From Opitutales bacterium (lineage in GTDB: Bacteria; Verrucomicrobiota; Verrucomicrobiia; Opitutales; PNEW01), in NCBI GenBank assembly GCA_965197745.1, contig CBDANS010000006.1, positions 1,376,001 through 1,440,000 on the forward strand: a stretch of DNA of 64,000 bases, in the 5' to 3' direction. A program made the position numbers and the translations under genes. Position 1 is the stretch's first letter, and each line of letters begins with the position of its first letter. Below, one piece after another: positions 1,329 to 45,156 of this stretch. Under the pieces are notes generated by a model, which saw only the letters and a program-made list of their open reading frames with translations, was not told where the DNA came from and ran no database searches.

Positions 1329-1583
1329 GGTGGAACGCGCTGTCCCTAGTGCGTTGAGGATATCGGACGCAAAAGACATACCCCTGGAATGGAAGATGTC
1401 GGGCTTCGCCCTCGGTACGGATTTCGGATTGGAGGGATTCGCCGCAGAGACGCAGAGTACGCAAAGTTAGTATATAAAATTTTGTTTTTGTATTATTCAT
1501 AAACTAAAATCTCAGCGCTCTCAGCGCCTCTGCGGTTAATTTGCCAAAAAACAATCGACAATCGCAAATCGGCAATCCGAAAT
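1329..1583. repeat. Composite intergenic repeat cluster: GTGG-REP-like hairpin, CTACCGAG-type mini-element, 9-mer inverted arms, heptamer array
   Basis: GGTGGAACGCGCTGTCCCTAGTGCGTT 1329-1355; GAAGATGTCGGGCTTCGCCCTCGGTA ~1392-1417; CGCAGAGA(C/T)-type 9-mers 1443-1465 with inverted partner 1511-1536; AATCGAC/AATCGCA/AATCGGC/AATCCGA 1553-1583. Confidence 0.8.
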
Positions 1584-3699: not shown

Positions 3700-3753
3700 T
3701 GTTTATAAGATAGCCACATAAAGCACAAAAGGCACAAGAGAGTTTTTATAAAA

Positions 3754-3888
3754 TTGTCATTGCGAAAGAGGTGAAAACCAACCTCGGCTACCGAGCGCAG
3801 CGACATCTTTCAATCCATGTGTATGTAGGACGCCTATTGACAATCCCCTGGATCGCCGCAGTCGGCCACGCCTCCTTCGCGATGACAA
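3754..3888. repeat. TGTCATTGCG...CGCAATGACA long palindromic element carrying a 23-nt insert (3788-3810)
   Basis: Terminal IR TTGTCATTGCGAA / TTCGCGATGACAA; related copies at 6790-6898, 27984-28219, 44996-45156 and a right arm at ~35755-35797. Confidence 0.85.
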
Positions 3889-5325: not shown

Positions 5326-5489
5326 AATATAGGTTTCAGATGAGTGACTCACTGCATGGATCAGACCGGCCGAAATTTCCAGCAATAGTAAAATTATTAA
5401 AGTTCTCTGGAGATTTAGTGGTTTATTCAATGTTAGATTTCGACCTACAGCCGCGGGACTCGGTAGCCAATTGTCGATTGAAGAGATTA

Positions 5490-6789: not shown

Positions 6790-7153
6790 TTGTCATTGCG
6801 GGGAGCAACGAGACGAAGCAATCCAGAGGGAATTATTTTTCGCAATAGACATTTCCCTGGATTGCCGCAGTCGGCTACCGCCTTCTTCGCAATGACAATA
6901 GGGGAACAATTACTCAATCGACAATTTATTTCTCAATCTAACCGACATTACCCAGCGCGTTTCTCCAATTGCGACATCCTCAACGCGCTAGGGACACGAT
7001 TCAACTTAGCTCATCGCAGGTTGCGTTCCACCTATTTGCCTGACACACATAGCTGTTATCTTTAAGATGACTGTCTTAACACCTGTATCCTGCATCATGT
7101 ATCCTGCATCGTGTCCGCATTCGTACCGAGGACAAAGCCCGACATCCTCCAAT
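6790..7153. repeat. Repeat cluster: empty TGTCATTGCG palindrome, filled GTGG-REP, heptamer array, CTACCGAG-type element
   Basis: 6790-6898 palindrome; 6981-7033 REP with 24-nt insert 6997-7020; TGTATCC/TGCATCA array 7084-7111; TACCGAGGACAAAGCCCGACATC 7124-7146. Confidence 0.8.
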
Positions 7154-15285: not shown

Positions 15286-16426
15286 TTGAGATGGCATTGT
15301 AAAAACAGATGTTTATACCTGCGAAGTTATTTAGTATTATTACTAATAGCAGGAATGTCATCTTGCTCTGACTCATCCCAAAAAAACAAAGCGGATCAAA
15401 GGCCAAATATCCTTTTGCTGGTTGCTGATGATCTGGGGGATGCTGATCTTGGGTGTTATGGCGGTGATATCGAAACACCAAATATTGATAATTTAGCCGC
15501 CGCTGGCTTGAGGTTCAGCAGATTTTATACTTCCCCACTCTGCGCTCCTTCAAGAGCAATGCTACTTTCAGGAAATGATAATCACATAGCTGGAATGGGT
15601 AGGCAACACCTCCGCACCAGTGAATTTGGATATGAGGGAATGTTGACAGATCGTGTAGCAACAATTCCACAAGTGCTCAGAAACGCCGGTTACCATACAT
15701 ACATGGCTGGGAAATGGCACCTCGGGATGGACAATCCTCACTTAAAAGGATTTGAACATTCTTTCGTGCTTATTGGAGGTGGAGCAAACCACTATGACGA
15801 CCAGGGGTTCATGGCTGATACGCCCGTTTCATTATATACCGAGGATGGGCAACCTGCTCGCTGGGAAGGAGGTAACTACTCCACTGATTTTTATACCGAC
15901 AAACTCATAGAATACATAGACCGTCATCAAGGAGATCGAAAACCCTTCTTTGCTTATGCTGCATATACGTCACCGCATTGGCCTTTGCAGGTAGATGAAT
16001 CATACTGGAAAAAATATGCAGGTCGTTATGATGACGGCTACGAAGAATTAAAAGAAAGACGGCTGGAAAGTCTCAAAAATGCAGGAATGATACCCGAAGA
16101 CGCAGTCTTACCTCCCAATCATGAAATGGTGAAGCCATGGGATTCCTTGACTGCAGAAGAAATGAAAAAGGAATCTAGAAAAATGGAGCTATACGCAGGA
16201 ATGGTTGATAATCTGGATTTAAATATCGGTAGATTAATACAGCACTTAAAACACATTGGCGAATATGAAAACACCTTGATAGTTTTTATCTCTGATAATG
16301 GAGCTGCCGCCGAAGATTTCTATTACCATGAATATTTTGGCCCATTTATTCGGGAACATTTTAATGATGACTATGAGAGTATGGGAAAACCTAACTCTTT
16401 TATATCCTCTGGTCCTCAATGGGCAG
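15286..16426 (+). pseudogene. Arylsulfatase, 3'-truncated by IS3
   Basis: PNILLLVADDLG, formylglycine motif CAPSRAMLLSG, GKWHLG, SDNG; sulfatase-like sequence stops at GPQWA where the IS end begins. Confidence 0.88.
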
Positions 16427-17510
16427 TGGTCGTGACCACGAAAACTGGTCCACTTGAAAAGTTAGTCTGGGACACCTAGAAAGGACTCAGACAATGAAAG
16501 GCAAAAGCTATACAACCGAAGAGAAGATACGGATGCTGCGGCAGGCGGACAAAGGGAAAACGATCCTGGAAGCATGCCGCGAGAACAACATAAGCGAACA
16601 GAGCTTCCACCGCTGGAAGCGTGAGTTTGGGATGATTGATGTCAACCAGGCCAAGCGGATGAAGGAACTCGAGAAGGAGAACGCGCGGTTAAAACGGATG
16701 CTGGCGGACAAGCTGCTGGGGATAGAGATCCTGCAGGAGACGCTTGAAAAAAAATGGTAGATGTCGCTTATGCTCGGTAGTAAGCCCTGGGCACAAGCGG
16801 CAAGTGGCAGAGAGACTTGTGGCTCGGGGCCAGTGTTCGATGCGAGCGGGGTGCCGGTACTTTCGGCTGCACCGTTGCACCTATGCGTATAGGGCCAAGC
16901 AACCGGATGCTTGGTTAATGAAACTGAAGGCGGCAGTAAGGCGGTTATCACGGCAATAGGCGAGGTGGGGCTATCCGAAGATCACGAAGCTGCTGAAGGA
17001 CGAAGGCTGGCAGATGGGTAAACGTCTGCGACGTGATCAGGGCTGGCGATCCCCCCCACGCAAGCCAAGACGCCGGCGCAGGGGTGTCTCCACCGGGCTG
17101 CCGACCAAGGCCGAACATCCCGGCCATGTTTGGACCTGGGATTTTATCCACGATAAGACGGTCCGCGGTGGCAGTTTAAAAATGTTGTCCGTGCTCGATG
17201 AGTAGACCCGCGAGTGCCGGGTGATCCATGTCGATCGCCATATCAATGCGGAGACGGTGCGCGGTCTCATGCAAAAACTGTTCGACTGGCATGGACCTCC
17301 ACCATTTATCCGTAGCGACTATGGATCGGTTCCGAGGGAAGCGCTCATGCTTAAACCAAGAGTGGTTTCTAAGCGTTACCGAAACGCGTGTTGTCATCCA
17401 TGCGTGGAAGCAAAATACAATGCCCAACACCCTCATTGTCGGCTAGGCTTTCTCTGTCTCAACGCTTTTGCCAAACGCTTGCAGGAACTCAATCCAACAG
17501 GTCCTGGCTT
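16427..17510 (+). mobile_element. Degenerate IS3-family element (right end missing)
   Basis: IS3-type left end TGGTCGTGACCACGAAAACTGGTCCAC; orfA 16494-16760; A8 slippery run; orfB fragments (WGYPKI, HVWTWDF, LSVLDE, FIRSD) broken by TAGs at 16957 and 17203 and by deletions. Confidence 0.85.
16494..16760 (+). CDS. IS3-family transposase OrfA
   Basis: HTH (CRENNISEQSFHRWKREFG) plus leucine zipper (RMKELEKENARLKRMLAD), ending EKKW*. Confidence 0.88.
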   Translation: MKGKSYTTEEKIRMLRQADKGKTILEACRENNISEQSFHRWKREFGMIDVNQAKRMKELEKENARLKRMLADKLLGIEILQETLEKKW

Positions 17511-17568
17511 TAGGTTATGCGCTGAATGTAAGAATCTGGTTAAAGATTAATCAATTAAAATACTATTA

Positions 17569-27983: not shown

Positions 27984-28424
27984 TGTCATTGCGAGGGAGG
28001 TTATCAATCGATCGCGGCTACCGAGCGCAGCAACATCTCTCATTCCAGGCGAATAGTCATTGTGGTTACGGATACTATTCTCTGCTCTAAAACATGATTA
28101 ACCGGATATATAATGTTATTTGGCAATCGTCTACTGAGCGAAGCCTTGCATCCAGGGACTGCGATTACGCAACAGATATTCCCCTGGATTGCTTCGTCAC
28201 TTCGCTCCTCGCAATGACATTTAAGACGAAGATTAACGCATATCCCATAGATGAATATATATTACAGAATAATGGAGGGACGCGCGTTGTCGCGTCCATG
28301 AAAGTCGTACCCAAAGCGGCCACGACGACGCGTGGCCCTCCAAAAATACATCATTGACACGTTGAACGCGGTACCTGCCTGTCATAGTTCTCCCGCAACT
28401 GCGGGACTACGACGTGGCAAGCGA
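27984..28424. repeat. Repeat cluster: filled TGTCATTGCG palindrome, inverted GGAG-REP doublet, CCTG-element remnants
   Basis: Palindrome 27984-28219 with 23-nt insert 28018-28040; GGAGGGACGCGCGTTGTCGCGTCC 28274-28297 facing GGCCACGACGACGCGTGGCCCTCC 28318-28341; TCCCGCAACTGCGGGA 28391-28406. Confidence 0.85.
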
Positions 28425-35656: not shown

Positions 35657-35884
35657 AGGTGGGACGGGTGGGTGCCTGTCAGCCATAGCTACCGAGCGTG
35701 AAACACGACATCTTCCATTCCAAAGGACAATCAATACATGATTGGAATTCGGCTGGATTGCTTCGTCTCCCGCTGTTGCGGGCTCCTCGCAATGACAATT
35801 GGAAGAATACGAATTAATAATTAAATTTGATAACCGTTAGGCACAATCCGCAATCCGCAATCCGATATCCGCATTCCGCAATTC
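35657..35884. repeat. Multiply nested repeat remnant plus CAATCCG heptamer array
   Basis: AGGTGG-REP start, CCTGTCAGCCATAG, CTACCGAGCGTGAAACACGACATCTTC (35688-35715), palindrome right arm with TCCCGCTGTTGCGGG, then (CAATCCG)n 35844-35883. Confidence 0.8.
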
Positions 35885-44995: not shown

Positions 44996-45156
44996 TCATT
45001 GCGTGGGAGGCCACCAGCTGGCCCCGACTACCGAGTCTCGCGACTGCGAAGCGGCATCTTCCATTCCAGGAGAATAGCCGTCGTGTTTACGATTACCACT
45101 CTATCTACTATAAATTTTTCCATTGAAGCTTCGTCTCTTCACTCCTCGCAATGACA
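44996..45156. repeat. Degenerate TGTCATTGCG palindrome with CTACCGAG-type insert
   Basis: TCATTGCGTGGGAG...CTACCGAGTCTCGCGACTGCGAAGCGGCATCTTC...CTCCTCGCAATGACA. Confidence 0.75.

Follow-up and report, generated by a model that had tools for sequence, protein, structure and literature searches.

A 23-nt insert in the IS3-family frameshift region of an Opitutales genome as one copy of a family of very small, possibly mobile, repeat modules

The small dispersed repeats (SDRs) of heterocyst-forming cyanobacteria, which Elhai et al. are said to have described in 2008, reportedly measure ~21–27 nt, are associated with heptamer tandem repeats, and lie inserted in repeats or conserved sequence for which empty counterparts exist. 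SDRs appear to be the nearest known counterpart, and GTAG-tagged repetitive extragenic palindromes (REPs) the next nearest, of a 23-nt insert found in the window, that is, the whole 64,000-nt stretch C6:1376001-1440000 of a 4.45-Mb, 7-contig Opitutales genome. The insert interrupts the frameshift region of a decayed copy of IS-1, an insertion sequence (IS) of the IS3 family, and is considered, with somewhat better than even confidence, to be one copy of a very small insertion module whose behaviour is that of a mobile repeat, non-autonomous and akin to REPs or small dispersed repeats. Both systems consist of very small dispersed repeats with insert-bearing and insert-free counterparts, which here number 7 and 35 at the insertion point in IS-1 (site A) and 45 and 118 in the arms of a palindromic repeat; moreover, the present modules adjoin tandem repeats of the CCCTGAA, CAATCG and TGGTGAA types. 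The systems differ in that the modules belong to Verrucomicrobiota (Opitutales), have a variable mini-hairpin within conserved flanks and repeatedly interrupt IS3 transposase genes, and the sequence reportedly differs as well. Systematic nesting in transposase genes is what is unusual about these REP- or SDR-like repeats.

REPs and REPINs are likewise hairpin repeats of 20–40 nt, present in ~100 or more copies and often part of larger mosaic or palindromic structures (Di Nocera et al. 2013, PMC3733652; Bertels and Rainey 2011, PMC3116915). In PMC3733652, Opitutus terrae, a member of the same phylum, is reported to be strongly enriched in GTAG REPs and to hold the largest number of intragenic REPs. 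The present modules share with REPs the high copy number, the small size and the mainly extragenic location (102 copies, 23–37 nt). However, where GTAG is present (76 of 102 modules, complementary strand), it lies 3' of the hairpin with CTCG between, whereas the GTAG of REPs stands at the 5' foot; the stems vary from 0 to 7 bp, in contrast to the conserved 6–9 bp of a REP family; and a repeat-flanked gene for a REP-associated tyrosine transposase (RAYT; Y1/HUH type) was not found here.

The evidence that the 23 nt are an insertion comes from the IS itself, of which ~45 genomic copies were detected by blastn. Intact IS-1 is 1290 bp long, with ends TGGTCG...GACCA, and carries orfA followed in the −1 frame by an orfB of 315 aa with the motif SDNGSEF. 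It has the attributes of the IS3 family, namely a helix-turn-helix orfA (HTH_Tnp_1, PF01527, E 3.7e-20) with a DDE/rve orfB (rve, PF00665, 1.8e-22; rve_3, PF13683, 4.3e-26), an A-rich slippery heptamer serving the −1 orfB (A8, then CTGTAAGCC), and 5'-TG...CA-3' terminal inverted repeats (left TGGTCGTGACC..., right end ...CCCGACCA). In an alignment of 41 full-length copies and the window copy (n = 42), site A is empty in 35, all four intact copies with their −1 orfB included, and reads AAAAAAAA-CT-GTAAGCCC in 34 of them and -CG- at the same place in one. It is filled by 23 additional nucleotides in the other seven, the window copy among them (AAAAAAAATGGTA-GATGTCGCTTAYGCTCGGTAGTA-AGCCC), and an eighth filled copy is a fragment on contig C5. 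Related IS loci (n = 79) were also fetched from other genomes, metagenome-assembled genomes (MAGs) labelled Opitutales, Puniceicoccaceae, Pelagisphaera, Akkermansiaceae, Planctomycetota and others. Eight of these from other genera (L008, L009, L010, L013, L014, L017, L036, L048) have an insert-free frameshift region of the form GAAAAAAAG(T/C)TGT(A/G)AGCC. The 23 nt are missing both from intact paralogues and from these relatives, and hence represent a real insertion.

In the window copy, positions 16758-16780 read TAGATGTCGCTTATGCTCGGTAG (reverse complement CTACCGAGCATAAGCGACATCTA), with borders uncertain by 1–3 nt because GTA/TA is repeated at both edges. The TAG that terminates orfA (16758-16760) arises within the insert, and the orfB-like VSPGHKRQ starts at 16780 in frame +1 relative to orfA. 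It is because of the insert that this copy lacks the −1 arrangement of IS3 elements: orfB is shifted to +1, and the downstream sequence lies 23 nt farther from the slippery run. The sequence-only reading of this stretch, which had seen the +1 relation, deduced an inserted 23-nt mini-element and proposed alignment to intact IS copies as a check, is borne out on these points; its description of the target as a non-repeat is mistaken, as the target is itself a repeat with ~45 copies, and of its claim of independent mobility the insertion stands but current mobility does not, since site A appears to be an old event, recombination can explain the spread and no enzyme was found.

Several observations bear on the history of site A. 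One Opitutales MAG record of another genus contains both filled (L011, L012, L070) and empty (L037) loci, and the filling of site A points to one event because its middle part differs by point changes only; it looks like one old insertion common to two genera. The shared position and the near-identical middle across loci and genera are thus not evidence of current mobility. Every filled copy is otherwise defective, six of the seven through a frame-breaking module in orfB and the seventh through a TAG at a conserved Glu codon, and the carriers must therefore have multiplied in trans or been reshuffled by recombination. All four filled/empty combinations of site A and site B, a second insertion point in orfB, occur among IS-1 copies, and on a tree computed with the insert columns removed, copies filled at A lie scattered, with intact copies placed amid near-identical carriers of module B. 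Such a patchy distribution fits either recombination between copies or repeated gain and loss. Only 4 of the 42 copies are free of modules; two are canonical two-frame elements, and two (C7:1901265 and C4:136858), otherwise intact, have GAGCTCTTTGAAGGAG for GAGCTCGAGAAGGAG in orfA, a 1-nt change that yields a single 415-aa orfA+orfB frame without frameshift.

The insert in IS-1 is a member of a larger non-coding family with the consensus (C)TACCGA-G(mini-hairpin)C-GACATCTTCCA, or (C)TACCGA-G(variable GNA/GNRA-looped mini-hairpin)C-GACATC-TTCCA, and a size of ~23–37 nt. In the window, CTACCGAG-N3-20-GACATC occurs three times against 0.01 expected, a number reached by 0 of 100 shuffles, and CTACCGAG six times against 0.90 expected. 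Genome-wide, the loose pattern TACCGAG-N3-30-RCATC has 129 matches with length peaks at 19, 23 and 30 nt, and 260 matches against 47 for a reversed control when up to one mismatch is admitted. Its 15-nt class is an unrelated IS, and an unrelated multi-copy element of ~20 copies (for example C6:175342) also matches the loose motif by chance, with TACCGAGAGAACATC in apparent coding sequence. A curated set, for which the tail TTCCA was required with at most one mismatch, comprises 102 copies: 58 lie in palindromic GTCATTGCGAG arms, 12 next to tandem repeats of the CAATCG type, 9 follow ATAGCCAC, 7 occupy IS-1 site A and 16 have other surroundings. A C precedes 76 of the 102, giving CTAC, whose reverse complement is GTAG. 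Of the 102, 17 are overlapped by open frames of 150 aa or more, and on inspection these frames are IS copies, repeat tracts or extensions upstream of genes. Modules often border, or lie within, tandem repeats with heptamer or hexamer units (CCCTGAA in copies on C5 and C7; CAATCG-type), and in a genome of another family a module accompanies 13 tandem copies of TGGTGAA (L005).

The exact pattern TACCGAG-N5-20-GACATCTTCCA has 44 occurrences here, 66 and 83 in two members of the same family that belong to another genus, and six in one genome of another family. It was not found in a third genome of the same family (82% complete), in 26 other genomes of the order or in 400 further genomes of the phylum, and the reversed control gave 0 everywhere. 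Modules are therefore borne by 4 of 31 genomes, this one and its relatives, and the family is lineage-restricted, with ~100 copies here. The genome-wide scan suggested by the sequence-only reading thus returned frequencies far above chance (exact pattern 44, reversed control 0) in five classes of context, among them palindromic arms, short tandem-repeat tracts and sites after ATAGCCAC, in keeping with its view of a repeat family in unrelated settings. All eight further copies that it named in the window are present (see also Table 1), two of them, at 5436-5465 and 28019-28037, in degenerate form; the match at 28018 has one mismatch, and removal of the insert at 3788 restores ..GGCAATCC.., the normal sequence of the 118 empty palindrome arms. 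Both outcomes that would have spoken against it, the insert in intact relatives of the IS and a chance frequency of the motif, are contradicted by these data.

The palindromic arms supply another system of empty and filled sites, independent of IS-1 site A. At least 163 arms were counted; the 118 empty ones read ..GC/AA/TCCAGG in 69 cases and ..GC/GA/TCCAGG in 18, with other forms in the rest, and the 45 filled ones read ..GC/TACCGAG-X-GACATCTTCCAT/TCCAGG in 25, the remainder being variants; in some palindromes one arm alone is filled. The repeat itself resembles a transposable element of the miniature inverted-repeat kind (MITE), with arms GTCATTGCGAG-(variable)-GACGAAGCAATCCAGG around a central hairpin, and is found at 3750-3860, 28000-28120 and 45000-45130 of the window and throughout the genome. 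The variable part of its arms has a GAG-hairpin-CGA layout, as in the module.

The middle part of the module is variable in sequence and regular in form. In 47 of 70 strict copies the bases pair perfectly, with a closing G..C, all the way from the G of TACCGAG to the base that precedes GACATC; 200 shuffles gave 11.5 such copies on average and 19 at most. Among these 70 copies there are 45 distinct middle sequences, with stems of 0–7 bp (mostly 2 or 4 bp) and GCA (13), GAA (9) or GTA (6) as loops. Watson-Crick pairs fill 64 of 80 and 94 of 119 cells, compared with 28 and 33 once the 3' partner has been shifted by one, and some of the changes compensate each other. DNA mini-hairpins with GNA triloops, d(GCGNAGC), are known to be very stable (PMC13037366, PMC3201870), and the commonest module middles (GC-GCA-GC, C-GAA-G and C-GTA-G) are alike, as is the GCGAAGC of IS-type modules. 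In the literature, however, these hairpins are a structural motif and not a genetic element, and standard folding parameters miss their special stability.

Modules of the same kind also interrupt orfB. Headed by TACCGAG or TTCCGAG and 31–42 nt long, they sit at four conserved orfB codons in three IS3-family lineages (Table 1). IS-2, a second IS3-family element with 34 full copies, has the same modules at the same codons, D in 28, B in 32 and E in 10 of the 34, and every full copy has at least two; module F is also present in a third lineage. Altogether, 34/34 IS-2 and 38/42 IS-1 copies are interrupted. Searches of the genome returned 73, 33, 14 and 14 matches to modules B, D, E and F, all in transposase contexts. 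Among the foreign IS loci, SDNG(S/P)EF is uninterrupted in 67 of 79, and module B is present in six, all from one Opitutales MAG record. The module at site A is antisense to the transposase and those at B, D, E and F are sense. The empty sites are C/AG/T, G/AG/T, G/AG/T, C/AG/A, G/AA/T, C/AA/A and GC/AA/T, and the module takes the place of one or two of the middle bases.

Table 1. Features of the decayed IS3-family copy, further module copies in the window, and module sites in orfB; coordinates count from the first letter of the window.
Feature	Position	Strand or orientation	Length change	Copies	Details
Left inverted repeat TGGTCGTGACCACGAAAACTGG, start of window IS-1 copy	16427				
IS-1 portion of decayed chimeric IS3-family copy	16427..17337	+			blastn against ~45 genomic copies; alignment with intact 1290-bp copy
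orfA, 88 aa, HTH transposase N-terminal protein	16494..16760	+			C-terminal LEKKW, then stop
A8 slippery run, IS3-type −1 frameshift region	16747..16754	+			
23-nt module, minus-strand reading CTACCGAG-CATAAGC-GACATC-TA	16758..16780	−			alignment of IS copies
orfB remnant, DDE integrase core, stops and frameshifts	16780..17329	+			
Junction of two IS-type modules, module B head TTCCGAGG and module F tail GAAGCGCTCA	17330..17347	+			
3' orfB remnant from third IS3-family lineage, not IS-1	17348..17530	+			
Module, X = GGCGAAGCCC, then TTCCATTCCAGG	1390..1417	−			
Module, X = CGCAGC	3788..3812	+			in arm of GTCATTGCGAG palindromic repeat
Module, X = GACAAAGCCC	7124..7151	+			adjoins short tandem repeats
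Module, one mismatch AACATC	28018..28042	+			in repeat arm
Module, X = CGTGAAACAC	35689..35717	+			
Module, long middle, X = 17 nt	45028..45063	+			in repeat arm
IS-1 site B, after SDNGS (TTCCGAGGAGCGAAGCGACGACATGCRAAGCCA)		sense	+31	37/42	
IS-1 site D, LD/EY		sense	+42	2/42	in-frame TGA
IS-1 site E, PWQ/NG		sense	+41	1/42	
IS-2 site F, D/E/CLN		sense	+35	8/34	

Modules serve as recombination points between IS copies. The orfB of the window copy has in-frame stops as well as small deletions. This copy consists of IS-1 sequence as far as the module B head (17330-17337), which normally follows SDNGS; from there the module F tail (17338-17347) leads into the 3' part of the third lineage, so that the orfB stretch between sites B and F of intact copies is gone; the junction was aligned with a master copy, a copy with modules at sites A and B, and a copy of the third IS3 family with module F. 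A second chimera has IS-2 upstream and IS-1 downstream of module B. Interrupted copies have multiplied nonetheless: 14 IS-2 copies are at least 98.5% identical and all have two modules, which implies that dead copies multiply in trans and that recoding is not needed to explain the spread. The one IS-2 copy that was translated (L093, G000:C6:974400-976350) has an in-frame orfB stop at a TAG common to 15 of the 34 aligned copies. An intact IS-2 master copy is not present in the assembly, and the ends of IS-2 resemble those of IS-1, which makes cross-mobilisation conceivable.

Other known systems are less close. The Rickettsia palindromic elements and intragenic REPs are also small repeats within coding sequence; however, PMC3733652 describes those inserts as mostly in frame, in genes thought to stay functional, whereas the present inserts (+23, +31, +35, +41 and +42) break the frame, add a stop or disrupt a catalytic motif, and are seen in transposase genes only. 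MITEs share the non-autonomous nature and the nesting in other mobile elements, and in PMC3733652 bacterial MITEs are given as 70–300 bp, which makes the module 3–10 times shorter. A MITE identity was rejected: the module ends, TACCGAG and GACATCTTCCA, are not inverted repeats, and 1–2 nt are replaced with no clear duplication. A miniature derived from IS200/IS605 was also rejected, as the left flanks differ (CTTAC, TCCG, GATG, TGGC, AAGC, GTG) and there is no strand bias. The mitochondrial 'byps' of Magnusiomyces are translational bypass inserts. The insert in phage T4 gene 60 is treated as one in bioRxiv 10.1101/2022.08.31.505936. These resemble the module in being short mobile inserts in coding sequence, and site A has matching codons at both edges; as a programmed bypass element the module was nevertheless dismissed, because the GTA/GTA match is confined to site A and no carrier has an intact orfB. 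The literature searched, whose coverage is incomplete, yielded nothing describing the module or REP-like inserts in IS3 transposase genes, and the GTCATTGCGAG string gave unrelated primer matches only.

The module appears to have entered the IS3 frameshift region once, in the ancestor of a minority IS sublineage and before, or independently of, the split from the sister genus. If it is indeed a mobile repeat, insertion would take place at short S/AR/T-like sites, replacing one or two target bases and leaving no clear target duplication, and propagation would probably proceed via the mini-hairpin as single-stranded DNA, helped by an enzyme acting in trans. Related modules of like head have reached the four conserved orfB codons in three IS3 lineages and, once there, act as recombination points. 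The two independent empty/filled systems, site A and the palindrome arms, favour this account, as do the narrow repeat family far above its control, the further sites in transposase genes, the uninterrupted motif of most foreign IS loci, the shared junction geometry, the hairpin middle and the multiplication of defective IS copies. Several results count against it. No transposase, enzyme or transposition intermediate could be linked with modules. Y1_Tnp (PF01797) occurs in each of the four genomes that bear modules, with open frames of 333–347 aa in the sister genomes, yet 12 of the 27 genomes without modules have it too, and the sole PF01797 match here is frameshifted, with no modules within ~1.2 kb on either side. 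Neither a clean target duplication nor a conserved target tetranucleotide was seen, and there is no replication-strand bias (26 vs 18 outside repeat arms, 33 vs 25 inside). Nearest-neighbour DNA folding of six window copies gave −0.8 to −5.5 kcal/mol and z from +0.5 to −0.8, that is, no significant stability, and the window IS copy has a stem of only 2 bp. Modules B, D, E and F were found nowhere in the genome outside IS3 orfB, and inspection of the 102 copies, done without a homology check, revealed no clear module within an ordinary host gene. Site A resembles a single old event, and gene conversion by itself could account for the four-state distribution at A and B and for the placing of intact copies amid near-identical filled ones. 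Logan contigs (public DNA and RNA) compared with an IS-2 copy contain no module-skipping joints, although contigs cannot reveal rare forms and are uninformative on RNA-level removal or excision; one RNA-library contig shows module F as 37 letters replacing 2.

Gene conversion has a part in an explanation that dispenses with dedicated mobility and is regarded as possible, if rather unlikely. Here the module would be a patch of recombination or replication: stable mini-hairpins stall replication, templates are switched at microhomologies, and the result spreads by gene conversion and crossing-over between IS copies. The chimeric copies joined exactly inside modules (the window copy, and the IS-2/IS-1 copy at module B) speak for it, as do the four A/B combinations, the intact copies nested within filled clades and the loss, not duplication, of 1–2 target bases. 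The left junctions, moreover, often share 2–5 nt with the usual upstream context of the module; site E has TGGC/TACCGAG where the arms have GTGGC or GCGGC before TACCGAG, and site B has TTCCG/TTCCGAG where the usual form is ATCCG or TTCCG before TACCGAG. However, the modules at B, D, E and F have no donor outside IS elements. The TACCGAG head at no fewer than seven unrelated sites of S/AR/T geometry is more regular than random template switching, and ~100 copies with conserved flanks and 45 different middles imply long-term propagation.

The conserved flanks and compensating hairpin changes could instead reflect selection in intergenic repeats, if the module is mainly a functional structured element, for instance a protein-binding site, a hairpin for RNA stability or termination or a part of a small RNA, and occurs in IS elements either incidentally or as a means by which the host or the IS damps transposase expression. 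Nearly all copies being intergenic agrees with this, and so does the placing of every IS site at a conserved catalytic-domain codon, with interruption of 34/34 IS-2 and 38/42 IS-1 copies. The proposal is nonetheless improbable: a common RNA-level role in the IS is precluded by the antisense orientation at site A and the sense orientation at B, D, E and F, scanning the window with Rfam returned 0 matches at the gathering score, the predicted folding energies are unremarkable, and the taxonomic range is very narrow. Hardly credible is the notion that the insert is tolerated by read-through, with insert copies remaining functional by +1/−2 slippage on A8 or by a ribosome hop from GTA 16757-16759 to GTA 16780-16782. 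The +1 frame is open from upstream of A8 through the insert into orfB (KKNGRCRLCSVVSPGHKRQ), GTA codons match at both edges, and insert-bearing copies exist at eight loci; but every insert copy has further disabling lesions, and a −1 slip leaves GAT as the codon past the take-off GTA, whereas a stop reportedly stands at that place in T4 gene 60. In addition, the contig-level RNA and DNA data show no module-skipping joints, those data having been compared with IS-2 rather than with site A.

A bolder version of the mobile-module account, that the TACCGAG modules are previously undescribed ultra-small (23–45 nt) site-preferring insertion elements, moving through a mini-hairpin intermediate with a host or element enzyme and preferring S/AR/T in IS3 catalytic-domain codons, must be called doubtful. 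If it were true, the modules would be transposon parasites or a lineage-specific means of disabling transposons, and it would be explained why 34/34 IS-2 and 38/42 IS-1 copies are interrupted, yet modules are not seen in host genes. How bacterial repeats below ~40 nt spread is an open question for RAYT-less REPs and for the SDRs of cyanobacteria. This lineage is an unusually clean case for it: the module is present or absent at near-identical paralogous sites, dozens of them, both within IS copies and within palindrome arms, and these presence/absence pairs define the insertion geometry of 1–2 bases replaced at S/AR/T. Tiny repeats can inactivate transposase genes at large scale and provide crossover points for chimeric IS, while defective IS still multiply. 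For annotation, the inserts account for apparent frameshifts and stops of IS3 transposases in these genomes.

Two loci were also compared between genomes. Upstream of a tRNA gene, the module-bearing spacer to the neighbouring conserved gene measures 317, 179 and 484 nt in three genomes (L004, L094, G000:C6:1363260-1363995) and contains different repeats in each; such spacers turn over quickly, and this one gave no clean before/after pair. A second locus had no orthologous match. Next to the window IS copy, an open reading frame with sulfatase-like motifs, read from its translation (15286-16479), enters the left end of the IS at 16427 and terminates inside it. Because no continuation was seen past the IS, this frame appears to have been truncated by the IS insertion and a later deletion.

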